Shown: one piece after another, positions 11,279-32,007 of the stretch
Layout: every line of letters starts with the position of its first letter
Position numbering within the stretch: position 1 is the stretch's first letter
Virus record (IMG/VR): IMGVR_UViG_3300037246_001354
Span: 1-40,674 of that record
Origin: a virus
Strand: one strand, 5' to 3'
Length of the DNA stretch: 40,674 bases
Program-made: the position numbers and the translations under genes
The notes under the pieces: model-generated
What the model saw: only the letters and a program-made list of their open reading frames with translations
The model's database searches: none
What the model was told of the DNA's origin: nothing

Positions 11279-11308
11279 TCCCCCTTTCTTCTCCCGACTT
11301 TTTTACTT

Positions 11309-11337
11309 ATTATATCAGAGTGATTAGTAAAAGTAAA
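11309..11337 (-). promoter_or_regulatory. sigma70-like promoter with extended -10 (TTTACT-N14-TGATATAAT) upstream of the gp55-like gene
   Basis: Minus-strand reading is GTTTACTTTTACTAATCACTCTGATATAATAAG; the same architecture recurs at 37966-37994 (+) and 40073-40101 (-). It lies ~30 nt upstream of the ATG at 11278. Confidence 0.4.
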
Positions 11338-11340
11338 CAG

Positions 11341-11703: not shown

Positions 11704-11717
11704 TTTTTTATCTCCTT

Positions 11718-12275: not shown

Positions 12276-12288
12276 TATTTCTTCTCCT

Positions 12289-12846: not shown

Positions 12847-12858
12847 TTTATTTTCTCC

Positions 12859-13434: not shown

Positions 13435-14404
13435 TATAATAACAACCTACTCTACATACATCTAATGCATTACAATTTTTACACTCTTCTCTTAAATTTT
13501 TAATACATTCTGTTTTAAAAGTATGTGCTGGTGTAATATATTCATTTTGTAATTCTATCATTGTTTTTAAACTGCCATCCTCTTTTAAAACACTGCCTAA
13601 TTTTATTCTTGTTTGATTACAGTATTGAAAATCCCAATTCGCATTTATTAATCCGGTTTTAGGACAGGTACAACATGTTGTACCAAAATGAAAATTAGTT
13701 AAGTCAATCATATTTAACTCATTTATCATTTCTTGTGTATAGAAACAAATCGGAAAAGAATGGTCTGTTCCCCATTCTATACCTCTACTTTGTAATTCTG
13801 GTATAATTTGCTTAAGGGTATCTATATATATTTTTCTATACTCTTTGGTTACTTCTTCATCAAACACATCTACTTGTGTATCACATGATATTGTATATTT
13901 TATATCAGGATAATAAATCATGCAATCTAACATCTTCTGAAGTATTTCCTTGTATCCCCACATAGTTATTACAAAGTGTAAATTTAATTTTCTATTAAAT
14001 CCTCTCCACTTTTCATACGTTACAGGGTCAAATGCATAACCATTTATAGTATATGTGATTTTCTCTTTATAATGTTCTCTTACTATATCTGGATGGGTAG
14101 CAATTTTATTTAACGTTCTACCATTAGTGAATAAATCAACTAACAAATAGTGCTTAGTGGATTCCAAAAGAATTTCAATTATTCTTGGATGAAGTGTTGG
14201 CTCACCACCCATAATTAAACATCTCTTATCACTCAGATGAGCACTATTTGTTCTTATAAATTCAATATAAAGGTCTGCATCCATCACAGCCTGATCTCTT
14301 GCTTCCGCATTAAAACAATGAGGGCAATCTAAATTACAATTTTCTGTTACAACAAATCTATGGCATAACTCTCTCACAATTATTTCTCCCTTTAAGTCCA
14401 TCAA
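13403..14404 (-). CDS. radical SAM enzyme with C-terminal SPASM domain (333 aa)
   Basis: N-terminal CNLDCPHC is an exact CX3CX2C radical-SAM cluster motif, followed by a GGEPTLHP SAM-binding motif. C-terminal CKNCNALDVCRVGC is an exact SPASM CX2CX5CX3C motif, with additional upstream Cys residues (CCTCP...C) for an auxiliary cluster. Confidence 0.7.
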   Translation of the reverse strand: MMDLKGEIIVRELCHRFVVTENCNLDCPHCFNAEARDQAVMDADLYIEFIRTNSAHLSDKRCLIMGGEPTLHPRIIEILLESTKHYLLVDLFTNGRTLNKIATHPDIVREHYKEKITYTINGYAFDPVTYEKWRGFNRKLNLHFVITMWGYKEILQKMLDCMIYYPDIKYTISCDTQVDVFDEEVTKEYRKIYIDTLKQIIPELQSRGIEWGTDHSFPICFYTQEMINELNMIDLTNFHFGTTCCTCPKTGLINANWDFQYCNQTRIKLGSVLKEDGSLKTMIELQNEYITPAHTFKTECIKNLREECKNCNALDVCRVGCYYNALVEHSKGG

Positions 14405-14422: not shown

Positions 14423-14788
14423 CTAGACTATACCGGTATCTTTGGTGGACCCGTCAGATTGAAGTGATATTTTATTTTCTACTTCTCTTTTGGTCTTGGC
14501 AAGCTCGCTACTCATTTCTAAGAATTTCATTTTGAGCTTGTCCATTGACCGTTTCTTAATTCTAAATTTCTTTTCCAAGATAGAGCTTTTTACACTATCA
14601 CCAAGTATGAAATCAAATTTTGACTTCCTCTTCAGTAACTTATTTAGCTCATTTATCTGATTTACTACGTCACTTTCTAATTTAAATTCCTCTTGAATCT
14701 TACGTACGAGTTCTTTATTACCGGTATCCTTATCAACGATGCCGATATTGAGATTTCTAAAATCATCTATGTATTTTTTAAATTTCAT
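14423..14788 (-). CDS. hypothetical basic coiled-coil protein (121 aa)
   Basis: ORF from the track, Lys/Glu-rich. Its start abuts the stop of the upstream giant gene. Confidence 0.4.
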   Translation of the reverse strand: MKFKKYIDDFRNLNIGIVDKDTGNKELVRKIQEEFKLESDVVNQINELNKLLKRKSKFDFILGDSVKSSILEKKFRIKKRSMDKLKMKFLEMSSELAKTKREVENKISLQSDGSTKDTGIV

Positions 14789-17700
14789 TATGGACTACTC
14801 GTACTAATGCTTAATGACTCGCTTTCAGAGCTAGATGATTGACTGCTTGAGCTAATACTTGAACTGCTGCTAGAACTAGAAACACTTGACGAGCTAGAAC
14901 TGCTAAGGCTTGATGAAGAGCTAGAACTGCTAGAACTTAGAGAACTCGAACTCGAAGAAACACTGCTCGAAGAGCTAGAACTACTACCCGGACAGATAAA
15001 GCCACCACTAACCAATAAGAAGTTATCAAATGCCGCTGAAACAATTGGAGTTCCTGTATAATTTTGTACATATAATGATACATCTACTTCTTCAAAAGTC
15101 TGTACAGTATAAGGACCACCAATCGCAACCCAAGTTGATCCATTCCAATAGTATGACTGCCAATCATCACCAACTCTGGTGATTCTGAATCCACCACTAG
15201 TTATAGGCGCTGAAACATTTGTACTGTCAATCACAACACCACCAGATACCATTTCTTCTGTGATTGTGGTTGTATGCGCTCTCTTATAAACTCTTGTTCC
15301 CCTACTTCCAGCTGTAAATTGTAGTACTTCAAATCCTACATTCCAACCACTACCACTAACTATTGATAATTCTCTCCAATCAGTTTGAACATCAAAATTT
15401 TCATTTGTAGGTATTAACCATCTTGTTGTTGCTTTAGATAGATTTGTTGTATCGTCTACATGTATTATAAGTTCTTCGCCGCTTACTATCATATTACCTA
15501 CTGTGGTCCATCTTTGTACATCTGGTACTGTTCCATCAGGTTGATCGAAGTCATCATTCGGTGTGATGAAACAAGAGAAACTACTGCTTGATGTCGAACT
15601 ACTACTAAATGATTCAGAACTAGAACTAGAACTTAATGAACTAGAACTGGAATCAGAACTGGATGAAATACTGCTCGATGAAATACTGCTCGATGAAATA
15701 CTACTCAATGAGCTAGAGCTAAGACTCGAGCTGCTCGACGAGCTTGATCTGGAGCTGGAACTAGAACTTACAGAACTGGAGCTTGAAGAAACGCTACTTG
15801 AACTAGAAGAAATAGAGCTTATACTTGATGAACTCGATGATCTACTTGAACTGGAAAAACTTTCACTGCTTGAAGATATTGAACTTGAACTCGCGCTTGA
15901 ACTGGAGAGAATAAATCTATCTTCAAGTTCTTTAATTAGTTCGTAATAATCTGCTGGAGTCAATCCACAATTTTCAAATTGTGATCCTTTATATCTTCTT
16001 CTTATTCTTGCTTTTTTCCATGGTGTAGATGAGCTAGATAAGCTTGAAGAACTAGAACTTAATGAGCTAGAACTGGAACTAGAACTTAATGAGCTAGAAC
16101 TGGAACTGGAACTTAATGAGCTAGAACTGGAACTGGAACTGGAACTTAATGAGCTAGAACTGGAACTGGAACTTAATGAATTAGAAGAACTCGATGAACA
16201 ATCATCTATAAGATAACTTCCTAAAGTTCCTGTAGCAAATTTACCAACATAAACATATTTTCCATCGCCCCAAACTGAAAGCAATCCGGCATCTACTTCT
16301 GTGTTTGTATCAAGAAGTGTTAAATTACCAGAACCATCTACTACATGACTCTTGAAGCCTTGAGTAAGATCGGCACAATAAATAAAAGTTCCATCTCCCC
16401 AAACTTTTTGAGGTTGCCCACCTGCTAATACAGTAACATATGATAAATTACCAGATTCATCAACAGAGTAAGTTTGCATTCCTTCATTTTGATTAGCAAC
16501 ATAAATAAAGTTTCCATCACCCCAAACACCCTGGTAGTTACTACCACCACCTTGCTTTTGGGTAGAAATATGATTTAAATTACCTGCACCATCAACAGAA
16601 TAACTTAAAATACCAATACCAGTCGAAGCAACATAAATAAAATTTCCATCACCCCAAACATCTTTATAAATACTGCCTTGGTCATCTACATCTTTAAATG
16701 TTAAGAAACCAGCACCATCAACAGAGTAACTTCTAAGACCTTGATTATCACAAGCACAATAAATAAAAGTTCCATCACCCCAAACACCCTGGTAGTTATC
16801 ACCTTGATCTATTAAATGTATTGGAGTTAGGATACCATTTTCATCAACAGAATAACTTCTAAGTCCAAGGTGGCTATTAGCAACATAAATAAAGTTTCCA
16901 TCCCCCCAAACACCATTATAAGAATTGCCTTGATCGTCTGTATCTACATGCGTTAAAACACCTGAACCATGATCGACTGAAAAACTTCTAAGACCCTCAA
17001 GTTCACCCGCAACATAGATATAATTTCCATCACCCCAAATATCAGCATATGAATCACTACCTACGGTAATATCATCCATAAGTGCTATATCACCTGAACC
17101 AGTACAGGTTGACGACGAACTACTGGAACGAGATGAACTTGATACTGATGATGAACTAATAGATGAACTAGATAAACTGGATGAACTAATAGAGCTAGAA
17201 CTAGAACTCGAACTTAATGAACTAGAACTTAGCGAACTCGAACTTAATGAGCTAGAACTGGAAATAGAACTAGAACTGCTTGAAGATGAATTGAAATTAA
17301 TTTCAAAATTCTGAGTATAGCCTGTAGCACTATCGGCGGGAGAAGCACCGGAATCTCTGGAAACTAATACATAAAGATATTGTTTTGCTCCAGTTTCACA
17401 GGTAATTGATAGTGCATCTATTAATGATCCCGAGGTTCTAGCGGAATCGGAGTGAATATCTAGTGTTGCTATAGTTCCATTCCTTTTGAAAGAGCAATAT
17501 AATAAATCAGATGATGTTCCACCATCATTATAAGCTTCTGTATTATCTGTGTTCTGGTCGCTTATTCTAAAATCTAAACTGTTACTATTTCCATAGGCAT
17601 AAACTACTATTCCATCATTTCCGCTGAATTGATCGTTAAATGTTCCAATTATGTTAGAAACAGAACACAAAATTGTTTGAGAAATAGTACCAGTAACAGC

Positions 17701-17877
17701 AGTAATTTGCATTTCAAAATCAATGTCAAAATCACTAAAATGACCTACACCAAAATCATAATATGCATAAGAGACATCATCCCTGCGCATTGCAGTGAAT
17801 GTAGCCGCAGAAGAGTCTAAAGTAAAAACACCAGCGCTGCCAACTGCTGTATATGTAGTTAAATTTTCAATTGCCAT
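14788..17877 (-). CDS. giant fiber/adhesin-like protein: poly-Ser linkers + LVIVD-like beta-propeller + jelly-roll-like module (1029 aa)
   Basis: Eight ~45-aa repeats of form y.GVWGDGnFIYVA...GLRSYSVD.sGnLT. Four long SSSSLSSSS linkers. Central module CFITPNDDFDQPDGTVPDVQRW...FDNFLL is shared with two paralogs. Confidence 0.55.
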   Translation of the reverse strand: MAIENLTTYTAVGSAGVFTLDSSAATFTAMRRDDVSYAYYDFGVGHFSDFDIDFEMQITAVTGTISQTILCSVSNIIGTFNDQFSGNDGIVVYAYGNSNSLDFRISDQNTDNTEAYNDGGTSSDLLYCSFKRNGTIATLDIHSDSARTSGSLIDALSITCETGAKQYLYVLVSRDSGASPADSATGYTQNFEINFNSSSSSSSSISSSSSLSSSSLSSSSLSSSSSSSSISSSSLSSSSISSSSVSSSSRSSSSSSTCTGSGDIALMDDITVGSDSYADIWGDGNYIYVAGELEGLRSFSVDHGSGVLTHVDTDDQGNSYNGVWGDGNFIYVANSHLGLRSYSVDENGILTPIHLIDQGDNYQGVWGDGTFIYCACDNQGLRSYSVDGAGFLTFKDVDDQGSIYKDVWGDGNFIYVASTGIGILSYSVDGAGNLNHISTQKQGGGSNYQGVWGDGNFIYVANQNEGMQTYSVDESGNLSYVTVLAGGQPQKVWGDGTFIYCADLTQGFKSHVVDGSGNLTLLDTNTEVDAGLLSVWGDGKYVYVGKFATGTLGSYLIDDCSSSSSNSLSSSSSSSSLSSSSSSSSSSLSSSSSSSSLSSSSSSSSLSSSSSSLSSSSTPWKKARIRRRYKGSQFENCGLTPADYYELIKELEDRFILSSSSASSSSISSSSESFSSSSRSSSSSSISSISSSSSSVSSSSSSVSSSSSSRSSSSSSSSLSSSSLSSISSSSISSSSISSSSDSSSSSLSSSSSSESFSSSSTSSSSFSCFITPNDDFDQPDGTVPDVQRWTTVGNMIVSGEELIIHVDDTTNLSKATTRWLIPTNENFDVQTDWRELSIVSGSGWNVGFEVLQFTAGSRGTRVYKRAHTTTITEEMVSGGVVIDSTNVSAPITSGGFRITRVGDDWQSYYWNGSTWVAIGGPYTVQTFEEVDVSLYVQNYTGTPIVSAAFDNFLLVSGGFICPGSSSSSSSSVSSSSSSLSSSSSSSSSSLSSSSSSSVSSSSSSSSISSSSQSSSSESESLSISTSSP
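16053..16186. repeat. tandem 27-33-nt serine-codon repeat (about 5 copies) inside the 1029-aa gene
   Basis: The unit acttaatgagctagaactggaact(ggaact) recurs head-to-tail and encodes SSSSLSSSS. The period is always a multiple of 3. Confidence 0.7.
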
Positions 17878-17882
17878 ATAAT

Positions 17883-17892
17883 CTATTTATCC
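17883..17892 (-). promoter_or_regulatory. late-promoter-like GATAAATAG junction motif
   Basis: Minus strand reads GGATAAATAGATTAT-ATG, a 7/8 match to the T4 late consensus TATAAATA. The same motif recurs at four other gene junctions. Confidence 0.3.
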
Positions 17893-17893
17893 T

Positions 17894-20800
17894 TTATGGT
17901 GCTGTACTGCTAGAAGAAGTACTACTTGAACTAAAACTTCCAGCACATATAATTCCATCTGCTGAATTTACAACAAAATCATTCAAACTAATTGTTGATG
18001 TTGTTGCGTCGCCTGCTTTTAGATGTATTTGAATTTTTACATCCCCTGTGTAATCAGAAAGTAGAGCACCAGTTGTACTAGCCTGAGCACATATACTACC
18101 CCATCTTGATTGTGGTCCATACCAGGTCCATCCTCTTATTTCGTCACCAATTCTTGTAAATCTAAGACCTGGGTCACGTGGGTTCGCATCGTAACCTTGA
18201 TTACAAAATCCAGCTGTAGTACCTCTACCACCAACTCGATTTGCACCACCAGTTTGTTTATAGTTACGTATCATGGCTACCTCTAATGCTCCTAATCCTC
18301 CACTAGCTGGAACTACCTGCATTTGTGGAAACCAGTTTTCTGTTGTAGGATTAACGCCATGGAAATAACCAAGATGACCAATATGAATATCAAAGTCACC
18401 AACAAATCCATTTCTTGACTCTATAACGAAAAGTCTATCACCAACAGTAGATGCACTAGGATTGAAGTATAATGTATTATTCTTTATATATGCTCCATCT
18501 GGATCATCTGCCTGTAGTATACTCCACTTTTGAAGGTCTACTGAGTCACCATCACTGCCATCGAATGAATCATCAGGTACGATTTCACAAGAAACGCTAC
18601 TTGAACTTGTAGATGAACTAGAACTAGAACTTAATGAACTAGAACTAGAACTTAATGAACTAGAACTCACAGAACTACTTGAACTACTTGATGAACTTGA
18701 ATATGTTTCTCCAAATATACATTGTGCATTACTATTAAAATCACCTATGTATAGATACCTTACAGTTGTTCCTTCTCCTGATTTATCACCATTTGTATGT
18801 ACTATCTCTAATCCAACTTCACTAGGAAATCCTGTTATAGTTGGTGCTGAAAAGTAATCCCCGCCTCCTTTATTAAAATGGAATGTATCACCACTTCTTT
18901 GTAAGCGAAGGTTATAATCTCCATTCATAGCAGGATCATCAATCTGGATTCTTCCAGTTGGCACACCTGCGCTAGGCGTGTAATCATAATATGGTTGTGT
19001 TCCATTGAGGCCAGAATGGTATAATGCGGCTCCAAACTCAAAATACCAATCAGCGCCACTCGTAGGTAAGTCGAAAATTCTTAGATACTGTCTATGTCCA
19101 TCTACATCATGCCCAGAACCATCTGTATTTGAATAAGCAACCGTATAGTGTAAACTAAAGTTTCCATCAAAGCTACCTGTGAAAACAAATCTGGTTTTTC
19201 TATCCGTGATTGATAAATCTTGGTCATTTACAACTGATTCCATTACATAATCACCACTAATAAAACCATATTTTAACCACTCATCAACATTATTAGATAG
19301 TGGATGAGTAGTGTTCCATAATTGGCCACCTGGTTGTGAGTCGTTAGTATATGGAGTAGTAGGAGGCGGTGCGGCAGAAGCACAATCATTTCCACAACCA
19401 TCAAAACCACCACCATAGTTTTCAGATACACCCTTTTCTAAAAATGGTTCTTGTAATTGGAATCCAGCGGATGGTGTTAATACACAACTAAATGAACTAG
19501 AAATTGATATTGAACTTGATGAAAAACTTGAACTTGATGATGAGCTTGAAAGTCCACAGAATGAAACTAATACCCAAATTTGAAAAAGGTATCCATTTCT
19601 TAAAGCGCCCGAAGTATTACCGAATGCAAAGTCAATATCCAGATTTCTAAGATCATCCCATATCCAATTTTTATATCCCGGCCCCGCAGCATCATTAGTT
19701 ATATCAAAGGTATATATAGTTCCTCCTGCTCCTATAGTAGCAGGAAGTTGATCTGTTCCATAATCAGTTCCAGGAGTAACACCATCAAATCTTGGTGTAA
19801 AATTTCTTAATTTTGGATTCACTTTCGTATTTTCAGAAGCTATTTTAACTCTTATTTTAACTCCAAATATATCACCATATTCAGCCCCTGAAGGTATAGT
19901 ATTACCAGTAAATCTTAACAAATCACTTTGTGCACTACCCCATACATCAAATCTTGCATATGTATTTGGATCACCATCTGTGGAGTTAGGTAAATCAACC
20001 CAACTACCAGATTGTCCACCCAAATTTGAAACTGTATTATAGTCATAAGCGCCTTCTGGTATGCCAAGCGGACAAGATGAACTACTGCTTAAGGAAGACG
20101 ATGAAGAAGACGATGAAGAAGAAGTCGATGAACTGGAACTACTACTAGAAAATGTTTCTCCAATTATACAACCTGCATTACTCAAAGTATCCGCAAAATA
20201 ATCCATTCTAACTTCTGATCTTTGGTCAGTCCTAATACCATTTGTGTGTATTATTTCAATTCCAACCTCACTTGGAAAATCTGCTATTGTTACGTCTAAA
20301 GCTTTGGAATCACTGTTTCTATAAAATTGAAATGTTTGTCCTGATCTAAGTATTTTAGCTCTATGTCCAGCACTCTGTTGCCAGAAGGTGTCACCGGTAT
20401 ATTTAGTTCTTCCATTACTCACACCAGCACTTGGTGTATAGTCAGCGTAAGGTGATGATCCACCAATTCCAGTCTGCCATATGAGAACACCACATTCTAC
20501 GTACCAATCAGCGCCACCTGTTGGTAAATCGAAAAATCTAAAGAAGTACCTATGACCATCTACATCCACACCGCTATCTGTTGAGGCACTCCAAGGTGTT
20601 GCAAAGTTAATGCTGAAATCTCCATCAATTTTCCCTGTGAATTTATATTCGGTTTGTCTTTCTGATCCGGACACTTCCAAGTTATTTACTATTGATCTCA
20701 TTGATAAATATGGTTTATTGCTATTATCAGGATCAGCTCCCCAACTGTAGTAACTTAAAGAATTATCGCTATTATTAGGTTTTGGTGTAATTACTTCGAA

Positions 20801-22762
20801 TAATTGTCCACCAGGTTGAGCACCTAATGTATATGGAGTAGTTGGTGGCGGCGCTGCTGATGCAGGAGTAACTGGATATGGTAAATTTCCAATGTAGTCT
20901 CTTGATTCACCAGCTTCTAAGAATGGCTCAAGTATTTGGAATCCTCCGGCTGATACTAATACACAACTAAATGAACTAGAACTAAATGAGCTAGAACTAG
21001 AACTTAGAGAACTCGAACTTATAGAACTACTGCTCGAGCTAGAACTTGAACTTAGAGAACTACTGCTCGAGCTAGAACTTTCAGAACTAGAACTTACAGA
21101 ACTAGAACTTGAACTAGAACTTTCAGAACTAGAACTTGAAGAACTGGAAAGAGAACTTGAAGAACTCGAAGAAGAAGAACTCCATAAGCTTCCTTGACCA
21201 GCTATTACTAATAATGAGTCATTTGGTGGTGAACTTGATGCTGCCCAAACTCTCATTGTTTTTGAATCTATAAAATTTATCTCTATTGGGTAGTATATTT
21301 CTTTTGTTTCAGTATCCCATAATGTTGCTGCGTACGTATGTTGAACACCCATATAATGTACTATATCTGCATAGTATATACTACCACTTGGTACCCACAC
21401 TGCTTCATATTGTATATCTGATTCTGTTCCATCCTCCACTATCCTTATTTGTTTAAATATTAATTTATTATCTGTTGAATAAGGAAAAGCACCATCAGCT
21501 ACATATGACAATAAATCACAGATGTTTTTATTACTTATGACTTTATTATATCCAGCTGGTGGATCAGTTGTCGTTTTCCAAGAATAATCAAATTCACCCC
21601 AAGTTACTTTCATCAATCCATGAGTACCCACGGTACAAATTGTTTCACTTACTGAACTACTGCTTGAACTTACAGAGCTGCTACTACTGCTTGAACTTAC
21701 AGAGCTGCTTGAACTTGAAGAACTACTGCTCAAACTACTAGATGAACTAGATGAACTAGACGATACAGAACTAGAACTACTACTTGAACTGACACTTGAG
21801 CTACTTGATGATACTGAACTTGAGCTACTTGAAGAATATGAACTTGAAGAGGGTTCTACTTCATAACTAAACAAAATTCCATTAGGGATACCTACATAAA
21901 CGAAGTTTCCATCACCCCAAATTCCTCTGGAACCTGGAGCACTATCAAGTAGTATTAAACCACCAGTAGGATTTACAGAGTAGCTTGTAAAATTGCCTGT
22001 CGAATAAACAAGCTGTCCATCACCCCAAACTTTCCACGCATCTCCTGCTTCTAAGTTTCTACTTACATATGTTAAATTACCAGAAGGATCAACTGTGTAA
22101 GTTAAAACCCCCCTGGCATTACTAGAAACATACAAAAAGTTTCCATCCCCCCAAACATCAGTATATGAATTGGCAGGAACCTGAACTTCATAGTGTTTAT
22201 CTACAAATGTTAAATTACCAGAACCATCAACTGTGTAAGTTAAAAGTCCACCATTGGCTTGACCAGTAGTTATATAAATAAAATTTCCATCACCCCAAAC
22301 ATTTCTATATACAGTTGATCCTCCAATCCAATGAACATCTTTATATGTTAAGAAACCACCACCGTCAACAGAGTAGCTTTTAATTCCTTGCCATTGACTA
22401 GCAACATAAATAAAATTTCCATCACCCCAAACACTTACATAACCATTACCTCCAACTATTCCCCCTTGTAGGTGTTCATCTATAAATGTTAAATTACCAG
22501 AAGGATCAACGGAATAAGTTCTAAGACCACCAAATTCACAAGCAGCATAGATGAAAGTTCCATCTCCCCAAACGCCTGCATAAGCATGACCCTGGTCATC
22601 TGAATGTATAAATGTTAAATCACCAGAAGGATTTACAGAGTAAGTTCTAAGACCAGCAGCATCACAAGCAGCATAGATAAAGTTTTCATCTGTCCAAATA
22701 GCCATTGGTGTACCAGTACCCTTGTCATTTGTATCTTTAAGTGTTATATCACCTGCTGCCAT
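17894..22762 (-). CDS. giant fiber/adhesin-like protein with internal ~400-aa tandem domain duplication (1622 aa)
   Basis: N-terminal propeller repeats (VWGDGNFIYV...), then five poly-Ser linkers and two paralogous ~400-aa domains (SSFSCVL...AAPPPTTPYT...DVDGHRYFFRFFDLPTGGADWY...FPSEVGIEIIHTNG). C-terminal module CEIVPDDSFDGSDGDSVDLQKW. Confidence 0.55.
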   Translation of the reverse strand: MAAGDITLKDTNDKGTGTPMAIWTDENFIYAACDAAGLRTYSVNPSGDLTFIHSDDQGHAYAGVWGDGTFIYAACEFGGLRTYSVDPSGNLTFIDEHLQGGIVGGNGYVSVWGDGNFIYVASQWQGIKSYSVDGGGFLTYKDVHWIGGSTVYRNVWGDGNFIYITTGQANGGLLTYTVDGSGNLTFVDKHYEVQVPANSYTDVWGDGNFLYVSSNARGVLTYTVDPSGNLTYVSRNLEAGDAWKVWGDGQLVYSTGNFTSYSVNPTGGLILLDSAPGSRGIWGDGNFVYVGIPNGILFSYEVEPSSSSYSSSSSSSVSSSSSSVSSSSSSSSVSSSSSSSSSSLSSSSSSSSSSVSSSSSSSSVSSSSSSVSETICTVGTHGLMKVTWGEFDYSWKTTTDPPAGYNKVISNKNICDLLSYVADGAFPYSTDNKLIFKQIRIVEDGTESDIQYEAVWVPSGSIYYADIVHYMGVQHTYAATLWDTETKEIYYPIEINFIDSKTMRVWAASSSPPNDSLLVIAGQGSLWSSSSSSSSSSLSSSSSSSSESSSSSSSSVSSSSESSSSSSSSLSSSSSSSSSSISSSSLSSSSSSFSSSSFSCVLVSAGGFQILEPFLEAGESRDYIGNLPYPVTPASAAPPPTTPYTLGAQPGGQLFEVITPKPNNSDNSLSYYSWGADPDNSNKPYLSMRSIVNNLEVSGSERQTEYKFTGKIDGDFSINFATPWSASTDSGVDVDGHRYFFRFFDLPTGGADWYVECGVLIWQTGIGGSSPYADYTPSAGVSNGRTKYTGDTFWQQSAGHRAKILRSGQTFQFYRNSDSKALDVTIADFPSEVGIEIIHTNGIRTDQRSEVRMDYFADTLSNAGCIIGETFSSSSSSSSTSSSSSSSSSSLSSSSSCPLGIPEGAYDYNTVSNLGGQSGSWVDLPNSTDGDPNTYARFDVWGSAQSDLLRFTGNTIPSGAEYGDIFGVKIRVKIASENTKVNPKLRNFTPRFDGVTPGTDYGTDQLPATIGAGGTIYTFDITNDAAGPGYKNWIWDDLRNLDIDFAFGNTSGALRNGYLFQIWVLVSFCGLSSSSSSSSFSSSSISISSSFSCVLTPSAGFQLQEPFLEKGVSENYGGGFDGCGNDCASAAPPPTTPYTNDSQPGGQLWNTTHPLSNNVDEWLKYGFISGDYVMESVVNDQDLSITDRKTRFVFTGSFDGNFSLHYTVAYSNTDGSGHDVDGHRQYLRIFDLPTSGADWYFEFGAALYHSGLNGTQPYYDYTPSAGVPTGRIQIDDPAMNGDYNLRLQRSGDTFHFNKGGGDYFSAPTITGFPSEVGLEIVHTNGDKSGEGTTVRYLYIGDFNSNAQCIFGETYSSSSSSSSSSVSSSSLSSSSSSLSSSSSSSTSSSSVSCEIVPDDSFDGSDGDSVDLQKWSILQADDPDGAYIKNNTLYFNPSASTVGDRLFVIESRNGFVGDFDIHIGHLGYFHGVNPTTENWFPQMQVVPASGGLGALEVAMIRNYKQTGGANRVGGRGTTAGFCNQGYDANPRDPGLRFTRIGDEIRGWTWYGPQSRWGSICAQASTTGALLSDYTGDVKIQIHLKAGDATTSTISLNDFVVNSADGIICAGSFSSSSTSSSSTAP

Positions 22763-22803
22763 TTAAAATGTCCTTATTGTTAAATTATTCCATGTCATTT
22801 AAT

Positions 22804-22813
22804 CTATTTATCC
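22804..22813 (-). promoter_or_regulatory. late-promoter-like GATAAATAG junction motif
   Basis: GGGATAAATAGATTAAATG..., followed by an 11-codon mini-ORF ending IRTF* whose TAA overlaps the ATG of the downstream giant gene (TTTTAAATGG). Confidence 0.3.
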
Positions 22814-22814
22814 C

Positions 22815-25166
22815 TTATACTGCATATGATACCCTAAGTTCTGCACATAATGTTGTTGATAAATCATAAGCTTTAGCATCTCTATGTGTATTATTACTTG
22901 AGGCATCATTAATAATATGTACTGTCAAAGCCTGTCCAGTATTCCATCCAGCCCTTGCAAAATGTGTTTCTAATATTGAACTAAAATCATCTGAATCATA
23001 AGTATTACCATCAGACCAAATCTGTTCCCCATCCCAAGGTATTGAAGCCCCTAAAGGTCTACCAAGAAGATCGCCACTTCCAGTGGGTGCTGTTGGATTA
23101 TCAGCATCCTCAATTCGAATGTTTGTTCTGAAGGTATTATTTGGTCCTGACAAATTCGAAACAAAACGCAAAATCGCAGATGAAATGACAGTATCTTTTG
23201 GAATTGTAACTGATGAAAAACGAAACCATCCACGATTAGAGGCACCTTGTCTGTTTCCCATATTCACAGATACATTTGAATTAATCCACCCAGACCCATT
23301 TACATTGGACTGACCATCATCAGCGCCTGTTGCTATCCTAACAGCAAATGCAGCTAGCGAAGTAGAGGAACTTGAACTGCTTTCTGATGATGAACTTGAG
23401 CTTGAGCTTACTGAACTAGAACTTGAACTTAGTGATGATGAGCTACTACTTGATATTGAACTGGAACTTACAGAACTTGAGCTACTTGACGACGATGTGC
23501 TAGAACTAGAACTGGAACTTAGAGAACTTGAGCTTTCTAAGTCACCTTCTAATTGTTTCGATATATGACACTCAATTTGATAAGCAAGAGAATTACTAAT
23601 TGCTTTATTTTTATCATTTACATCGGCGTCACCAGTTGGATCATCTATTTGACTCCAATCTTGTGGATCAAATGGTGTATCATATATTGGGTGAAAATCA
23701 CCCCAAGTCATTATTCTATCTGCTGACTTAACACCACCATCATCGTCCCACTCTAATTTAATTCTATCATCCCACTCATAACCAAGTGGATCTACATTAT
23801 TCCACATTTCATCTTTTAAGTAGAACTCAAATATTCCACCATCAAAAGCTGAAGTAGCGGTTGAAGTAGTAACCGGGTTAGATATTTGCAAACCAACTTT
23901 ATCATATAATTCTGCTAAAACAACCGTATCAGTTTTATCAACATGTACAAAAACTGTTACTTCTTCTCCGACCCTTGGTACGCCTTGTCTATCTCTTAAT
24001 GAATACCAGAAATGCTTGAGTGTTGGTAATGCCAAACTAGTACTACTTGAACTTGAACTAAGGCTTGAGCTACTTGAACTTGAACTAAGGCTTGAGCTAC
24101 TTGATGAAGAGCTAGAACTAAGGCTTGAGCTACTTGAACTAAGGCTTGAGCTACTTAAACTGCTACTTGAACTACTTGAACTTAAAGAACTCGAACTTGA
24201 GCTAGAGCTAAGAGAACTTGAAGATGAACTTAAAGAACTCGAACTAATACTTGAACTTGAGCTACTGCTTGATTTTTCTGCTTCATATGACCAAAAATTC
24301 GTATCAGCACCACAATAAATAAAATTACTATCTGCCCAAATACCTCCATAATCACCACCTTCATCCTCTATATCTATAAATGTTAAATTACCCGAACCAT
24401 CTACACGATGGCTTCTTACGCCATCAATAGTATTGGCAGTATAGATAAAGTCTCCATCACCATAAACATCATCATAATCACCACCCTGATAATTCGTATC
24501 ATTTAGCGTAAAGCCTACACCATTATTACTAAAACTCCTTAAACCATCAGTACCACAAGCAACATAAATGTAGTTTCCATCACCCCAAACCCGTCTAAAT
24601 CCCTCTCCTGCAGCGGTAAAATACGATCCTATAAAAGTCAATTCACCTATGCCATTAACAGTATACTTAAGTATACCACCAGGAGTACCAGAAACAGCAA
24701 CATAAAGATATATTCCATCACCCCAAATACCCGAATAAAAACCACCCTGATCGTCATCATCAACTTCTGTTAATACGCCATTTCCGTCTACTGTGTGACT
24801 TCTAATACCAAAGCTCATAGCAGCAGTATAAACAAAATTTCCATCAGCCCAAACGTCCTGGTGAAAAGTAAAAACATGAGTACTTTTATATGTTAAAATA
24901 CCAGCACCATCTGCTTGATAGGTCAGCAATCCATCAGTCCCAGAAAGTGTTACATAAATAAAAGTTCCATCCCAAAAAACAAATTCATATCGTTTGCCTT
25001 GGTCATCTTGATCTACAAATGATAAATTCCCCGAGCCATCAACAGAGAAACTTTTTAATCCGTTAAAACTATCAGCAACATAAATGTAGTTTCCATCACC
25101 AAAACTTCCCCTATATCCAGGAGTACCACCGCCACCACCGATAAATGTTAAATCACCATATCCCAT
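22815..25166 (-). CDS. giant fiber/adhesin-like protein, propeller + Ser linkers + C-terminal globular domain (783 aa)
   Basis: N-terminal propeller repeats (FGDGNYIYVADSFNGLKSFSVDGSGNLSF...), two long poly-Ser linkers, and a C-terminal ~180-aa domain. Confidence 0.55.
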   Translation of the reverse strand: MGYGDLTFIGGGGGTPGYRGSFGDGNYIYVADSFNGLKSFSVDGSGNLSFVDQDDQGKRYEFVFWDGTFIYVTLSGTDGLLTYQADGAGILTYKSTHVFTFHQDVWADGNFVYTAAMSFGIRSHTVDGNGVLTEVDDDDQGGFYSGIWGDGIYLYVAVSGTPGGILKYTVNGIGELTFIGSYFTAAGEGFRRVWGDGNYIYVACGTDGLRSFSNNGVGFTLNDTNYQGGDYDDVYGDGDFIYTANTIDGVRSHRVDGSGNLTFIDIEDEGGDYGGIWADSNFIYCGADTNFWSYEAEKSSSSSSSSISSSSLSSSSSSLSSSSSSSSLSSSSSSSSLSSSSLSSSSSSLSSSSSSSSSSLSSSSSSSSLSSSSSSTSLALPTLKHFWYSLRDRQGVPRVGEEVTVFVHVDKTDTVVLAELYDKVGLQISNPVTTSTATSAFDGGIFEFYLKDEMWNNVDPLGYEWDDRIKLEWDDDGGVKSADRIMTWGDFHPIYDTPFDPQDWSQIDDPTGDADVNDKNKAISNSLAYQIECHISKQLEGDLESSSSLSSSSSSSTSSSSSSSSVSSSSISSSSSSSLSSSSSSVSSSSSSSSESSSSSSTSLAAFAVRIATGADDGQSNVNGSGWINSNVSVNMGNRQGASNRGWFRFSSVTIPKDTVISSAILRFVSNLSGPNNTFRTNIRIEDADNPTAPTGSGDLLGRPLGASIPWDGEQIWSDGNTYDSDDFSSILETHFARAGWNTGQALTVHIINDASSNNTHRDAKAYDLSTTLCAELRVSYAV

Positions 25167-25276
25167 TTAAAATGTCCTCATTGCTATTATTCTATTGCTG
25201 TTACTACAAAAGTACCCGCTGAAATCACTATCTGCTTCGGTATATTCACCTAATATATTTTCAATTGTCATATAAT

Positions 25277-25286
25277 CTATTTATCC
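25277..25286 (-). promoter_or_regulatory. late-promoter-like GATAAATAG junction motif with 34-codon mini-ORF
   Basis: GGATAAATAGATTAT-ATGACAATTGAAAAT... The mini-ORF MTIENILGEYTEADSDFSGYFCSNSNRIIAMRTF* shares its first codons with the 1029-aa gene (MAIENL...) and ends in the TTTTAAATGG start context of the 783-aa gene. Confidence 0.3.
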
Positions 25287-26102
25287 TATTGCTGTTATCA
25301 TAAACAATGCTGCAGATGGAGGAGTTGTTACAAATATCCTTAAATCATTTAGTCCTATAGTTTTTATTGTTTCTGGGATTATTAAATTATTATTATTTCT
25401 ATCTATTACTTGTACTATTGGATAATCATTATTGAGATTATGACTAATATCAGCATAATATAATGATCCAGAAGCTGCAAGAGCATGATCTTCTGGTATG
25501 CGACTGAAGTCTATGTCCGCAGCAGAAGCATCAAGAGATGTAGTCGACGCGCTTACTGCAAGAGTATAGATTTTATTTAGTAGTCTATTGCTGACTACTT
25601 TATTATATACATCACTCGAATCACATACAATAACAGGATGAATATTATGTGGTGATGCTGATGGAACCTCTGAATTAACATGTTGTTCCCATCTATACGC
25701 CAGAGCATTATTAATTAGTTTGTTTCTTCTAACTGCTTCATCATTTGGTGATTGACCACCTAAAGTTTCATCAATTTGGTATAGTGGTGGATATACATCA
25801 ATGTTCTGTATTGTGCCTCTTGATATACCAGGTTTATACCATGTTAACTTAAACCTTTGTGTGGATACGTAACCACCTTCTAATTCCCACTCATCACCTA
25901 CCCAAAACTCAAAGTATCCATCTGAATTTGTTACCAAGCTAACTGCATCCGTAGTCGTCATATGACCAACGGTTGGGTTGGTATAAATGCTTGCATACTG
26001 TGTGCTATCAGTATCTTCATTTAGAAAGAAGTCTACATCCACATTGATTATAGGTCTACCTTCTTCATCCACTATATACTGCCAATAATGTATTCTCGCC
26101 AT
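25281..26102 (-). CDS. fiber-associated protein (273 aa)
   Basis: NKLINNALAYRWEQHVNS ~ DKNKAISNSLAYQIECHISKQ in the 783-aa protein. SLYYADISHNL ~ SIYYADIVHYMG in the 1622-aa protein. Confidence 0.45.
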   Translation of the reverse strand: MARIHYWQYIVDEEGRPIINVDVDFFLNEDTDSTQYASIYTNPTVGHMTTTDAVSLVTNSDGYFEFWVGDEWELEGGYVSTQRFKLTWYKPGISRGTIQNIDVYPPLYQIDETLGGQSPNDEAVRRNKLINNALAYRWEQHVNSEVPSASPHNIHPVIVCDSSDVYNKVVSNRLLNKIYTLAVSASTTSLDASAADIDFSRIPEDHALAASGSLYYADISHNLNNDYPIVQVIDRNNNNLIIPETIKTIGLNDLRIFVTTPPSAALFMITAIG

Positions 26103-26120
26103 TATATATTTCCTCTTTAT

Positions 26121-26129
26121 CTATTTATC
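26121..26129 (-). promoter_or_regulatory. late-promoter-like GATAAATAG motif ~22 nt upstream of the ATG at 26102
   Basis: Minus strand reads GAAATAGATAAATAGATAAAGAGGAAATATATA-ATG. The spacing leaves room for a transcription start plus an AGAGGAAA RBS. Confidence 0.35.
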
Positions 26130-26178
26130 TATTTCTCTGTATACTGCTTAAAATTTAATCACATGAACTACTTGAACT

Positions 26179-29100
26179 CTACGTGCAATCGTTTACTTCA
26201 AAACTTCCAAGTTTTCCTGATATATTATGGGCGCAACCAAACACATATTTTCCATCGCCATAAACACCACGCAAAGCAGTATCAAAAGTAGTATCAGTAT
26301 CAAGAAGTGTCGGAAAACCAGAACCATTTACTATAATACTATTTAGACCACCTTCTGTTGTATAAACAAAAGTTCCGTCACCCCAAACTTCATCACCACC
26401 CACGTCAGCTAATGAAGTGATATACGTTAAATTACCAGCGCCATCAACAGAGTAAGTCATCAGTCCTTCATTTACATTAGAAATATAAAGGAAGTTTCCA
26501 TCACCCCAAACACCACGATAAGGACTACTACCACCACCTTGTTTATCAGTATCAATCCATGTCAAATTGCCACTACCGTCAACAGAGTAACTTACAACAC
26601 CGCCAGCACGAGCAGCACAATAAATGAAATTTCCGTCACCCCAAACATCATAATATTGCCCAACTCCTATAAAGTGTTGATCTTTAAATGTGAAAGCGCC
26701 AGCACCATCAACAGAATAACTACGAATTCCGTCAAAATAATTAGCAGCATAAACAAAAGTTCCATCTCCCCAAACACCATAATATGTATCACCATCATCT
26801 ATCGAATCTACATAAGTTAATATACCAGCACCATCAACAGAGTAAGACAATAGTCCAGTAGAACCAGAAGCAACATAAATGTAATTTCCGTCACCCCAAA
26901 CTCCTTCATATTGCCCCTTACCAGACTCAAAATGAACATCTACATGAGTTAACACACCTGACACTTCATCAACAGTATAAGTTCTAAGACCGGCAGCAAG
27001 AGCCGTAACGTAGATATAAGTTCCATCAAACCAAACATCAGAGTAAGTTCCGCCGCCTCGAGTGTCAGAGTCTTTAAGTACTATCTCCCCCTGACCTTCA
27101 CAAGATGAACTTGATGATGTACTTGAACTTGAACAAGACATTATTCCTGCATTTAAAGTAAAATTATCGAAAAACCATGTATTAAATTGAAAATTAGGTA
27201 ATAGAGGAAGTACTATTTTAAAAACAATATCTCCTGACCCAAAATCACTCATAGTCGATCTTAAAACAAAACCAGAACCATCTCCTTGGTCAACCCAAAC
27301 CTCAAGTGTATTACCTGTACGAACAAATCTTACTATACCACTAATATAATCCGCATTACTGTCTCTATATGTTTCTAAAACAGAACCATTATATTCTGTA
27401 ATATATATACTATGAACTTGAGAAGTATATCCCCTGTTCAATCGTACCCAATAGTTATTCGATTGATTCTTAACTTCAATATAAAAATTAAGGGGTTGTT
27501 TTACATCAGAAGAACCATGAGCATAATCTATTTCAAGGGATACATCATCTTGGAATTTAGCGTTATTGGTTAATGTTGCCGAACTTGTAAATGGGTCACT
27601 AAACATTCTTAATGTATCACTATCTATTTGACATATACCTGAACCTGTTACTACTCTTGTCCATCTATCAGAATCAGGAAAACTTCCGTTTGGACCTGTA
27701 AAATCATCATTTGGATCAAAATTACATTGTAACACTTGTACTGTATTTGAACTACTTGAACTGACACTTGAACTAGACCAAGATGATGAACTGGCACTTG
27801 AACTAGACCAAGATGATGACGAACTTGAACTAGACCAAGATGATGACGAACTTGACTCAGTTACAAATAATGCCTGCGTCCTGTAATGAAATACGGTCTG
27901 TACTTCAATAGGTTTGTGTAATTCAGAACACCTTGAATAGTACATTAAATCATCATTAACATTAAATAAACCAACTTCTCTTATTGTTAGCTCTTCTCCA
28001 ATCGGAACAATGAAGTCAATATAGTAATTTTCAGTATCTTGCCATACTCTCCAATAGTCTCCACTTGCTGTAACTGATTCAACATCATTAAACGAATATG
28101 GATTATATTCAACAGTTGTGCCATTACCAACCTTCCAGTATCCTAATCCATCTGGACATATTCCAAGTTTAGTTATATCACAATCATTACTTGTTCTTGC
28201 AACTACGACTGGCTCAAACCAAATAAAATAAGCCTCACCTGATTGAGCCGTTCCAAATTCTACAACAGCAGTGCTTCTATTTGGAAGAGTTACACTTATA
28301 GGATTTATATAATTACCATTTGAGTCATAGGTTTGAATAATCATACCATCAGTACCAGTATCATGGTTAATGGTCCAGGTGGTTGAGGCTACTGCTTGAG
28401 TATAATTATAATCAGCAGTTCTAACAAGTGCCTCACCAGTCTGATTTGTTGACCATATAGCTTCTGTTCTATCACCATCTACTATTGATGCGGAAAGAGG
28501 CCATGATTTAGACGGAGAAGTCCAGAAATTGGCAAGGGTTCTAGCTGGAACAGGATACCCACTTGGTGCTGCAGTTTCTAAACCATGAATTATTGTCCAG
28601 GTACTATTTGGTGCTACTTGATCGTACTCAAATGACATTTCAGGTTTATAGTATCCAGCTATGCAAGCAATACCAGATATTGCTTCATCGAAAGTTAACC
28701 TAACAATGTTATCTGTTAATATTTCTATATTGCTTGGTACTACTCTCTCCATTGGTAAGAAAGATACTTCTGTGGTTGGTTTCCACGCTTGGACCATTAT
28801 ATTTGTTCCAAATTCATGTGTTATCGTCCATGTTGTTGATGCATTATATTGAGTATAAACAATTGCAAATTGACCAGCATTAGGTGTTGGTTTAGCAGCA
28901 GATAAGAATTGAGAACCAGTAAATGTAGTATTAAAGTATCCAAGTGATGTTAAAGGGTATAAGGATTCTGTTTCACCGGTTCTACTCTGAATAGAAGCAG
29001 GTGATATAAGCTCTTGATATTGTACGTATTTACCGACAGGTCTTACATACTCCCAGTTTCTTATAAACTCATCTATATAAAACTTATTTAAAATCCAATC

Positions 29101-30240
29101 TTCATTAAATTTATCACCAATAGGTTCAGTAGTCAAATCAATTTCTGTAATATAATGAGGAGTTATTACCATACTACCACTTGGTGTTGCACTACCTATA
29201 TCACAACCTGCAGATGGCGCTTCAAGAGCAAGATTTGGATATGGGTTCATATCAATAGAGTATGGATTTGGTACTGGGGCACCAGATGGGATGAACTGGT
29301 CATACCAAGCTTTTCCAGCACCACCACTTGGAGAAACATTATAAAATTCTAGCCAGTTAAAGTCATTAACGCCAGGAGCAAAACCAGGAAATTCTTTAAA
29401 CGGTGGTATGTCTCCGGCTCCACTTTGACACCACTCTTGCCATCTTTCATATATATTCATAGCATTTACTGACCCACCAGAAAATATGTCATATACTACG
29501 TAAAGTGCGTCGTATGTGCCTACTCTTTTTAAGAAATAAACTAGTAAGTCAACCCACTCTCTAAGCACAGCATCATCAATATCTTCATTAATTAAGATAC
29601 CATACATACTGGCTATATATCCCAACCAGCGAGAGTCTATTTCTTTCGCATCTAACAGCGCCCACAGATATTTGGTCATATTATATGGTTCATGGTTTAC
29701 TTGGTCAAACCATACTTTAATAAGTTCTACTAAGTTAGTTGTTCTATTTACATCAGGTAATGCAGACTCCATATAGTCCTTCATGCCTTCAAATTCTATA
29801 TTCCAAATGTCTTCCTCACCTGATATTGGCCAAATTTTACCAAAGAAACAAAAGGTTCTATTAGTGTTTATGAAGTTTCTGAACTGATCTACATTTTCAA
29901 GGAGATATTCATAGAAATTCCCATCTTTTCTAAAATACATATCATTTCCCACCTCAAATATGGCTGCTGATACGGCTATCCCATTTATAGAGTGAGTGGC
30001 GAGGTTACCATCATATAACATTTTGAATTTATTACCATCTATCTCTTGAATAATAAAACTGTACGGTACAAAACCAAAATCCTCATTATCTTCATATAGT
30101 GTTGTAGCTATACCACCATCTGAAATCAGCGCTTTTTTAATACCCCAAATCCAAGAATCAGATGCTGTTCCTGCTCCACTACCGATAAAATCAAAATATT
30201 CTTTTAAAATATCATAGTTTGAATCACTAAATTTACTCAA
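26179..30240 (-). CDS. giant baseplate-distal fiber-like protein (1353 aa), TTG start
   Basis: TTG start preceded by an AAGGAGA RBS. The ~700-aa N-terminal region is unique, then poly-Ser/Trp linkers (SSSSWSSSS x3), a jelly-roll-like module (LQCNFDPNDDFTGPNGSFPDSDRW...FDNFTL) and a C-terminal propeller of VWGDGNYIYVA repeats. Confidence 0.55.
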   Translation of the reverse strand: MSKFSDSNYDILKEYFDFIGSGAGTASDSWIWGIKKALISDGGIATTLYEDNEDFGFVPYSFIIQEIDGNKFKMLYDGNLATHSINGIAVSAAIFEVGNDMYFRKDGNFYEYLLENVDQFRNFINTNRTFCFFGKIWPISGEEDIWNIEFEGMKDYMESALPDVNRTTNLVELIKVWFDQVNHEPYNMTKYLWALLDAKEIDSRWLGYIASMYGILINEDIDDAVLREWVDLLVYFLKRVGTYDALYVVYDIFSGGSVNAMNIYERWQEWCQSGAGDIPPFKEFPGFAPGVNDFNWLEFYNVSPSGGAGKAWYDQFIPSGAPVPNPYSIDMNPYPNLALEAPSAGCDIGSATPSGSMVITPHYITEIDLTTEPIGDKFNEDWILNKFYIDEFIRNWEYVRPVGKYVQYQELISPASIQSRTGETESLYPLTSLGYFNTTFTGSQFLSAAKPTPNAGQFAIVYTQYNASTTWTITHEFGTNIMVQAWKPTTEVSFLPMERVVPSNIEILTDNIVRLTFDEAISGIACIAGYYKPEMSFEYDQVAPNSTWTIIHGLETAAPSGYPVPARTLANFWTSPSKSWPLSASIVDGDRTEAIWSTNQTGEALVRTADYNYTQAVASTTWTINHDTGTDGMIIQTYDSNGNYINPISVTLPNRSTAVVEFGTAQSGEAYFIWFEPVVVARTSNDCDITKLGICPDGLGYWKVGNGTTVEYNPYSFNDVESVTASGDYWRVWQDTENYYIDFIVPIGEELTIREVGLFNVNDDLMYYSRCSELHKPIEVQTVFHYRTQALFVTESSSSSSWSSSSSSSSWSSSSASSSSWSSSSVSSSSSNTVQVLQCNFDPNDDFTGPNGSFPDSDRWTRVVTGSGICQIDSDTLRMFSDPFTSSATLTNNAKFQDDVSLEIDYAHGSSDVKQPLNFYIEVKNQSNNYWVRLNRGYTSQVHSIYITEYNGSVLETYRDSNADYISGIVRFVRTGNTLEVWVDQGDGSGFVLRSTMSDFGSGDIVFKIVLPLLPNFQFNTWFFDNFTLNAGIMSCSSSSTSSSSSCEGQGEIVLKDSDTRGGGTYSDVWFDGTYIYVTALAAGLRTYTVDEVSGVLTHVDVHFESGKGQYEGVWGDGNYIYVASGSTGLLSYSVDGAGILTYVDSIDDGDTYYGVWGDGTFVYAANYFDGIRSYSVDGAGAFTFKDQHFIGVGQYYDVWGDGNFIYCAARAGGVVSYSVDGSGNLTWIDTDKQGGGSSPYRGVWGDGNFLYISNVNEGLMTYSVDGAGNLTYITSLADVGGDEVWGDGTFVYTTEGGLNSIIVNGSGFPTLLDTDTTFDTALRGVYGDGKYVFGCAHNISGKLGSFEVNDCT
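27757..27866. repeat. tandem 33-nt repeat x3 encoding SSSSWSSSSSS linker
   Basis: cttgaactagaccaagatgatga(a/c)... repeated three times within the 1353-aa gene. Confidence 0.6.
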
Positions 30241-31999: not shown

Positions 32000-32007
32000 T
32001 ATTTATC
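32000..32007 (-). promoter_or_regulatory. late-promoter-like GATAAATA motif upstream of the gp6-like gene
   Basis: Minus strand reads AAGATAAATAATAAACATAAGAGGAAAACAG-ATG, ~24 nt upstream of the ATG at 31978. Confidence 0.3.

Follow-up and report, generated by a model that had tools for sequence, protein, structure and literature searches.

Almost all that is understood of how tailed phages recognise their hosts concerns rigid, trimeric fibres and spikes. What, then, is the role of a group of five co-directional open reading frames (ORFs), A to E, which lie next to the baseplate wedge gene gp6 at positions 14788-30240, all on the minus strand, in IMG/VR record IMGVR_UViG_3300037246_001354? The window analysed is 40,674 nt long and comes from an uncultured phage. 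The locus suggests a different design, one in which monomeric binding domains are held on long disordered tethers and some of them are fused to a wedge subunit. On balance, we think it probable that A to E are flexible, multivalent and modular host-attachment adhesins borne by the baseplate, with their domains arranged as beads on a string.

The sizes of the five ORFs (Table 1) are exactly those given in an earlier note on this DNA. A sliding-window scan of A, B, C and E found 14 serine tracts, each 69-92 % Ser, with lengths of 11-111 residues rather than the 20-60 residues given in that note. Together they make up 725 residues, of which 612 are serine, and they delimit 16 modules. Serine accounts for 30 % of protein A versus 6.5 % of the other proteins in the window. 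The note had also listed four giant paralogues and a fragment of 273 aa. As judged from their sequences, A to E are indeed paralogous but only by way of common modules (the propeller; A4, E2 and B6; B3 and B5; C2 and B2 with D) and not end to end, and the supposed fragment, D, is a complete gene, with an orthologue of 284 aa (74 % identity) in a syntenic relative, the JGI contig L035. None of the N-termini of A, B, C and E looks like a signal peptide when read by eye (no predictor was run). Scans of the whole proteins with Pfam and PHROG were nearly blank, for which the serine tracts are the suspected cause, and splitting the proteins into modules recovered Lactonase and LVIVD matches for the propellers of A and B.

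The surrounding genes confirmed, by their order and sequence relationships, that this is a T4-like phage, as had been claimed, with core-gene synteny of the Straboviridae type. Upstream of the locus are gp53, gp48, gp5, an endonuclease-VII-like gene, gp25 and gp6, and downstream are a radical-SAM gene, a gp55-like sigma factor gene, gp47 and gp46. The phage is a distant and deep-branching one, and gp6 and gp46 share only about 23-24 % identity with those of cultured phages. The T4 late-promoter motif TATAAATA was not enriched.

The best evidence that the modules sit on the particle comes from E1, the N-terminal part of E. The start of E is 10 nt past gp6, which is the position of gp7/gpI, and the order is the same in loci L005, L007 and L035. 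With E1 as the query, an exhaustive HMMER search retrieved 456 cluster representatives, of which 118 had E<=1e-30. E1 alone matched no Pfam family, and among 38 of its relatives Tail_P2_I was found in four (best E 1.9e-7) and the tail-collar fibre N-terminal domain PF12571 in two. E1 comprises an N-domain, three 'W.I.H.L' immunoglobulin (Ig)-like repeats that match PHROG 21918/16122, and a tail-collar-like C-terminal end. Searches of the PDB with the single sequences of E1 and of the E propeller (E3p) found nothing significant, and a profile of the N-domain built from 21 sequences matched one PDB chain, 8kea_c 'wedge protein gp32', over about 85 residues (E 8.6e-4). In the Anabaena myophage A-1(L) the wedge is (gp31)2-gp32, and gp32 lies at the periphery and helps to anchor the long fibre (PMC10966104). 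Because E1 comes next after gp6, has relatives containing Tail_P2_I and matches 8kea_c by profile, it is very probably a peripheral wedge subunit of the gpI/gp7 type and, if so, the lectin-fold module and propeller of E are placed on the baseplate.

E1 resembles the wedge proteins of the Tail_P2_I group (P2 gpI, T4 gp7 and A-1(L) gp32) in its position after gp6 and in the Tail_P2_I matches of its relatives, and the E1-family profile matches the N-terminal helical region of gp32. However, gp32 is only 191 aa long, whereas E1 is 795 aa and adds the three Ig-like repeats and the tail-collar-like end, and E is unlike the gpI/gp7 family in having poly-Ser tethers that lead to a lectin-fold module and a propeller. 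As 80 of the 81 full-length representatives of the E1 family end within 100 residues of the core, and one has a comparable long tail, the Ser-linked modules of E are a rare derived add-on. When E1 was compared by tblastn with 50,697 deposited phage genomes, the match was confined to one Ig-like repeat and to Erwinia jumbo phages.

The repeat from which a propeller had been predicted is real, but the 28 copies are of about 43 aa, seven in each of A, B, C and E, rather than six to nine copies of about 45 aa. The prediction that the repeats lie at one or other terminus held for B and C (N-terminal) and for E (C-terminal) but not for A, where they are internal. The four propeller modules share 37-57 % identity with one another (blastp E 1e-44 to 1e-103). 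An AlphaFold2 (AF2) model of E3p based on an alignment of 48 sequences (pLDDT 95.9, pTM 0.93) has 28 strands forming seven four-stranded blades and supports a beta-propeller fold for the repeats of all four proteins; E3p alone was modelled, and A2p, B1p and C1p were assigned by their sequence repeats. With the Pfam Lactonase profile PF10282 (cut-off 21.7 bits), E3p (45.9), A2p (38.1) and B1p (32.5) scored above the cut-off and C1p had no match, and the matches span only about 110 of the 344 profile positions. With LVIVD PF08309 (cut-off 20.2), A2p was above at 23.0 and B1p, E3p and C1p were below. The propellers are, thus, LVIVD-like, as first proposed, and can be likened to the LVIVD/YVTN/'Lactonase' seven-bladed propellers of bacterial and archaeal cell-surface proteins, though C1p only through a sub-threshold LVIVD match. 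Foldseek searches with the E3p model returned generic seven-bladed propellers (TM up to 0.84), the best being WD40 scaffolds, with virginiamycin B lyase among the matches. Conservation is blade-periodic across all 28 blades, and the blade motif VWGDGxFIYVA..GL.SYSVD.SGNLT marks these propellers, at the sequence level, as a distinct subfamily.

The lectin-like modules that had been suggested were found at the level of fold, as predicted concanavalin A (ConA)-like jelly rolls in A4, E2 and B6. The AF2 model of A4 is a 14-strand jelly roll (pLDDT 89.9, pTM 0.88), and essentially all of its top 50 Foldseek matches in the PDB are ConA-like-fold proteins or domains (E 2e-7 to 8e-6, TM 0.57-0.68), including the pseudo-beta-1,3-glucanase Rv0315, glycoside hydrolase (GH) family 16 glucanases, legume lectins, ERGIC-53 and the carbohydrate-binding module (CBM) CBM66. 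A4 shares the jelly roll with the ConA-like superfamily but differs in its sequence identity of 8-16 % to these structures, in matching no Pfam family and in having no conserved catalytic motif. In an alignment of eight A4/E2/B6 family sequences, W22 and R130 are the sole invariant residues, and the GH16 motif E-x-D-x-(x)-E is not conserved, the corresponding stretch reading DFDIQVD, FDVQTD or FDIHIG and having neither Glu. Hence, a non-catalytic, lectin- or CBM-like role is more likely for this family than that of a hydrolase. A profile of the family compared with the PDB gave only sub-threshold GH16 hints, and relatives of A4 carry weak, sub-threshold DUF1583_C signals.

The remaining modules are also related among themselves. 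The N-terminal half of D is paralogous to C2 (blastp 5.9e-11) and its C-terminal half to B2, and the latter half also resembles the 'W.I.H.L' Ig-like repeats of E1. B3 and B5 share 45 % identity. Profile searches against the PDB gave nothing for A1, C3 or D/C2. A1 and B3/B5 were suspected from motif patterns to be ConA-like, but comparison with the ConA-like family using hhalign revealed no convincing relation. Within more than 160 residues of poly-Ser, A3 forms a basic island, TPWKKARIRRRYKGSQFENCGLTPADYYELIKELEDRFIL, that is kept in the A orthologue P0081 and is 63 % identical in L035; possible roles for it are as a docking peptide or as a site of processing.

All six serine codons are in use in the tracts (AGT 217, TCA 144, TCT 118, AGC 77, TCG 32 and TCC 24), and therefore selection appears to act on the protein rather than the tracts arising by simple slippage. 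Howard et al. 2004 reportedly found mixed serine codons in bacterial polyserine linkers. A and B both finish in serine tracts with no module after them and with similar last residues (...SISTSSP in A and ...SSSSTAP in B), and the ...STSSP ending of A is kept in L035 and P0081. ORFs with serine tracts are also present on other viral contigs, as a crude scan of IMG/VR for a Ser-coding hexamer repeat showed, and none of them has the modules of A to E.

Saccharophagus and Cellvibrio secrete carbohydrate-active enzymes that contain polyserine linkers (PSLs; PMC2386152). The PSL enzymes of Saccharophagus degradans, Cellvibrio japonicus and Teredinibacter turnerae likewise have long, near-pure serine tracts between independently folding carbohydrate-related modules. 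However, the known cases are bacterial glycoside hydrolases with CBMs that are secreted via Sec, whereas A to E are phage proteins in a baseplate cluster with no apparent signal peptides, one of them a putative structural wedge protein, and their tracts reach 111 residues and include one that forms a C-terminal tail. No protein of the window matched a GH, polysaccharide lyase or CBM family of Pfam. Our literature search found no description of PSLs in phage tail or baseplate proteins.

Comparison with related loci bore out the suggestion of modular, exchangeable tips. In L035 the E1 core is 78 % identical and the flanks are as in the window (gp6, then beyond the locus a 121 aa ORF, the radical-SAM gene, three ORFs of about 185 aa, the sigma factor gene and gp47). 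However, the wedge protein there has an A1-like module after its serine tract and no propeller, the orthologue of C is arranged as Ser-C2-Ser-propeller, the opposite order to that in the window, and the orthologue of A (717 aa) reads A1-Ser-A3-Ser-A4-Ser tail, with the same ...SISTSSP end, and is without the propeller. A further protein at this locus, P0083, consists of A1-Ser-A1'-Ser-B2-Ser tail, again with no propeller. In P0081, a lectin-like module is found at the exact site of the propeller of A. The wedge cores of L005 and L007 are followed by a serine tract and then a propeller only, and that of P0104 by a serine tract and a B5-like module (E 1.5e-114); in L005, a D-like module forms part of a fusion protein of >1648 aa. 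Each of the module types that could be traced is present on a wedge protein, too, in one relative or another, and it is at the serine tracts that the changes lie. Since the module found at a given Ser-linker position differs between relatives, the sequences demonstrate module exchange among close relatives.

Whether the Ser-coding DNA itself promotes exchange is a separate matter. Most exact DNA matches between tracts do not exceed in length those of codon-shuffled controls, and hence the idea of a recombination joint would draw on the comparative pattern and not on DNA homology. One exact match, of 32 nt, exceeds the control range of 17-25.

In the JGI annotation of L035, the 717 aa orthologue of A (11734-13878, plus strand) is split into three small genes on the opposite strand and a 225 aa fragment. 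Genes with serine tracts are probably under-annotated in metagenomes in general and, as gene callers break Ser-rich genes apart, this architecture is probably under-reported. Another L035 protein, of 715 aa (9568-11715, plus strand), is absent from the window, has no serine tracts and includes four copies of HNEL.G[LI]QGG[IP].SA.EYYHLSQSIHDGL.SASP; it may be a conventional fibre-like protein.

Table 1. Genes, modules and serine tracts of the locus, with the two adjoining baseplate genes
Feature	Position	Strand	Description
Gene A	14788-17877	-	1029 aa: A1, Ser, propeller, Ser, A3, Ser, A4, Ser tail
A1	17290-17877	-	Conserved, 196 aa; N-terminal, in tandem, or on the L035 wedge protein
Ser tract A_S1	17095-17289	-	
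A2p	16198-17094	-	Internal propeller of A, residues 262-560; Pfam Lactonase 1.4e-9, LVIVD 23 bits
Ser tract A_S2	16027-16197	-	
A3	15907-16026	-	A residues 618-657; conserved 40 aa basic island within poly-Ser
Ser tract A_S3	15574-15906	-	111 aa, longest
A4	14986-15573	-	Predicted ConA-like lectin/glucanase-fold jelly roll
Ser tract A_S4	14794-14985	-	64 aa C-terminal Ser tail, no module after
Gene B	17894-22762	-	1622 aa: propeller, B2, B3, B4, B5, B6, with a Ser tract between each
B1p	21851-22762	-	N-terminal seven-bladed propeller of B; Pfam Lactonase 6.9e-8
Ser tract B_S1	21647-21850	-	
B2	21191-21646	-	Ig-like; paralogue of D C-terminal half; 68 % identity to P0083/L035
Ser tract B_S2	20966-21190	-	
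B3	20150-20965	-	272 aa; paralogue of B5, blastp 4.6e-75
Ser tract B_S3	20075-20149	-	
B4	19565-20074	-	170 aa; no relatives found
Ser tract B_S4	19487-19564	-	
B5	18701-19486	-	Paralogue of B3; same module after wedge core in P0104
Ser tract B_S5	18590-18700	-	
B6	17939-18589	-	A4/E2 family by alignment; ConA-like by homology to A4
Ser tract B_S6	17906-17938	-	C-terminal end of B, no module after
Gene C	22815-25166	-	783 aa: propeller, Ser, C2, Ser, C3
C1p	24273-25166	-	N-terminal seven-bladed propeller of C
Ser tract C_S1	24036-24272	-	79 aa
C2	23535-24035	-	Paralogue of D N-terminal half; 73 % identity to L035
Ser tract C_S2	23358-23534	-	59 aa
C3	22818-23357	-	Accompanies propellers in metagenome proteins P0005 and P0013
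Gene D	25281-26102	-	273 aa: two modules, without Ser linker
Gene E	26179-30240	-	1353 aa, TTG start: putative wedge core, Ser, ConA-like module, Ser, seven-bladed propeller
E1	27856-30240	-	Residues 1-795: putative gpI/gp7-type wedge core
Ser tract E_S1	27748-27855	-	36 aa
E2	27139-27747	-	A4/B6 family; blastp to A4 1.4e-6; ConA-like by homology to A4
Ser tract E_S2	27103-27138	-	12 aa
E3p	26182-27102	-	C-terminal seven-bladed propeller of E; Pfam Lactonase 5.7e-12
gp6-like baseplate wedge gene	30251-31978	-	Immediately upstream of E; phrog_219 2.4e-31, Pfam Gp6-like_1st
gp25	32003-32386		Upstream of gp6

How might such proteins act? The locus would form the variable, distal section of the cluster of baseplate genes. 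If solved baseplates are a guide, each wedge would have one copy of E and each particle six, with the C-terminal poly-Ser tethers of E bearing one lectin-fold module and one propeller. A, B and C would string independently folding modules on Ser tethers of 11-111 residues, with D as a two-module relative that lacks linkers, and these four are tentatively placed on the particle because of their position in the baseplate cluster and because their module types are interchangeable with those of E. Flexible tethers, of which the one of 111 residues would have a contour length of up to about 40 nm by an arithmetic estimate, could let several weak, monomeric modules explore much of the space around the baseplate and bind host surface polysaccharide multivalently in a first, reversible step of adsorption. 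The serine tracts would be neutral joints at which whole modules could be inserted, deleted, swapped or reordered, diversifying specificity.

Such adhesins resemble the modular fibres of T4-like phages (gp34-37, gp12, tailspikes) in lying beside baseplate genes and in exchanging specificity modules. They differ in that T4-like fibres are trimeric shafts, whereas A to E have neither coiled-coil nor beta-helical rods and consist of monomer-type globular folds on disordered linkers. The modules of A to E matched none of the gp34-37, gp12 or gp9-11 fibre families in Pfam or PHROG. Propellers as such are not new in phages since BFVD holds other propellers inside large phage proteins. We rate the poly-Ser proteins as a variant within the receptor-binding and adhesin proteins of phages.

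Several points weigh against an adhesin role. No domain for attachment to the baseplate can be recognised in A, B or C, and it is gene position and module types that point to a location on the virion. The case for glycan binding by the modules is one of fold resemblance, and comparisons with Pfam, PHROG, PDB profiles and hhalign provided no fold for A1, B3/B5, B4 or C3. A propeller is no less often a catalytic or protein-interaction domain than a lectin, and the best Foldseek matches here are WD40 scaffolds. No characterised receptor-binding protein of a T4-like phage is like these monomeric, tethered modules, which makes the analogy weak, and conventional fibres may be encoded elsewhere in the genome, of which 40 kb is in hand.

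The modules might instead be enzymes, that is, tethered depolymerases that degrade host capsule or exopolysaccharide in the way of phage tailspike depolymerases. Lactonase is the best Pfam family for the propellers and a lyase is among their fold matches; GH16 beta-glucanases are among the best fold matches of A4, with weak sequence matches on the GH16 N-terminal strand; and poly-Ser linkers are a typical feature of secreted enzymes that degrade polysaccharides (PMC2386152). However, the GH16 ExDxxE motif is not conserved in the A4 family, where W22 and R130 are the only invariants, and the top structural matches of A4 are the catalytically inactive Rv0315, lectins and CBM66. Conservation in the propeller follows the blades rather than forming a unique active-site set, and the Lactonase matches cover about a third of the profile. 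We consider an enzymatic role unlikely.

A second alternative is that the proteins decorate the particle and bind non-host material (mucus, marine gels, particles), raising encounter rates rather than conferring host specificity, as has been proposed for the Ig-like Hoc protein. A flexible, multivalent architecture with lectin-fold and Ig-like modules would suit such a role, as would the lack of a recognisable attachment domain in A, B and C, and marine metagenomes, TARA and GOS among them, are the source of some homologues. Set against this, the genes are in the baseplate cluster and not among head genes, E is a probable wedge protein, and rapid module turnover at 74-78 % identity is the pattern expected of host-range determinants. 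Decoration is, if anything, a rather unlikely explanation.

It is improbable, too, that the propellers, instead of binding host ligands, are WD40-like platforms for docking A, B and C to the baseplate or to each other, leaving the other modules as the tips. Each of the four large proteins has exactly one propeller, in B and C it is N-terminal, where phage fibres usually bear their attachment domain, and WD40 scaffolds are the best fold matches. However, the L035 orthologues of A and E, and P0083, are without a propeller, the propeller is the C-terminal, distal module both in E and in homologues of about 500 aa, and in P0081 a lectin-fold module replaces it at the same site.

That the giant ORFs are artefacts, either low-complexity DNA in a fortuitous open frame or assembly chimeras, has next to no likelihood, since, even though a gene caller broke up the L035 orthologue of A and repetitive DNA is prone to misassembly, the frame is kept through all 14 tracts, the tracts mix all six serine codons, the flanking modules have homologues with the same architecture in independent samples, and two modules are predicted to fold with high confidence.

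The adhesin reading can be taken further, though what follows is doubtful. A T4-like lineage could have supplemented or replaced its rigid trimeric fibres with monomeric 'fishing-line' adhesins, consisting of the wedge protein and three giants. These would present exchangeable lectin-fold, propeller and as yet unclassified modules on poly-Ser tethers tens of nanometres in length, with Ser-coding DNA as a universal recombination joint through which any module could pass from one of the genes to any other. As a speculative extension, the product of the conserved radical-SAM gene might modify the Ser-rich proteins. This gene (13403-14404, minus strand, 333 aa) is two genes downstream of A, and the synteny is kept in L035. 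Its product has CxxxCxxC near the N-terminus and, in a by-eye reading, a C-terminal CKNCNALDVCRVGC that fits the SPASM pattern CX2CX5CX3C. NCBIfam matches were to the core only, to many peptide-maturase families and all far below the cut-offs. In L036, another radical-SAM gene and two methyltransferase genes are found about 3.5 kb from the gene for a protein with an A1 module.

If A to E do act as adhesins, the known repertoire of phage adsorption devices would be widened, and A1, B3/B5, C3 and the propeller subfamily, which are absent from reference phage protein families, would gain a function. The locus would also represent a natural plug-and-play system, with Ser linkers as neutral joints, that could be useful for host-range engineering.

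Beyond the close relatives, a megablast search with the locus and a tblastn search with the propeller found no match in the 50,697 deposited phage genomes. The propeller subfamily was found in 12 IMG/VR loci and in 78 metagenomic homologues, mostly of about 500 aa and made up of a propeller with a LamG or pentraxin-type domain. It is mainly on metagenomic contigs, several of which have phage genes. A search for homologues with concatenated modules found at least eight proteins. In L004, a propeller protein directly follows gp6, though the GC content is different and there are no serine tracts; in L001 one lies near a sheath gene, and on the contig of P0004 one is beside an endolysin gene. In the siphovirus-type L036, the A1-module protein is one gene downstream of a gpJ-like tail protein, with a 144 aa ORF between them, and its linkers are (SESPS)n in place of poly-Ser. 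Contigs of metagenome-assembled genomes (MAGs) from unrelated phyla also carry relatives of the propeller and give no host signal; many of these are probably mis-binned phage contigs or prophages. Two relatives with 45 % identity, L020 and L022, are about 40 kb apart on a 3.1 Mb Spirochaetia MAG contig (CAXXIA010000002.1); they could be prophage or cellular copies of the module and might indicate a host group or where the module came from.

Two further features of the window lie outside the locus. Three consecutive ORFs of 185, 185 and 191 aa (11718-13434, minus strand) had no match in Pfam, PHROG or NCBIfam and are kept as a trio in L035 (183, 188 and 183 aa). Between gp46 and gp47, an ORF of 843 aa (5013-7544, minus strand) encodes a major-vault-protein-like product that matches Pfam MVP_shoulder (E 1.3e-26) and Vault_3 (E 3.4e-6) and no PHROG family. 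Its residues 469-811 match eukaryotic major vault protein structures by phmmer (E 5e-12), and among deposited phage genomes it was found in only three, the 'uncultured phage' records LR756500/1/3, of 462-735 kb, with 41-43 % identity.

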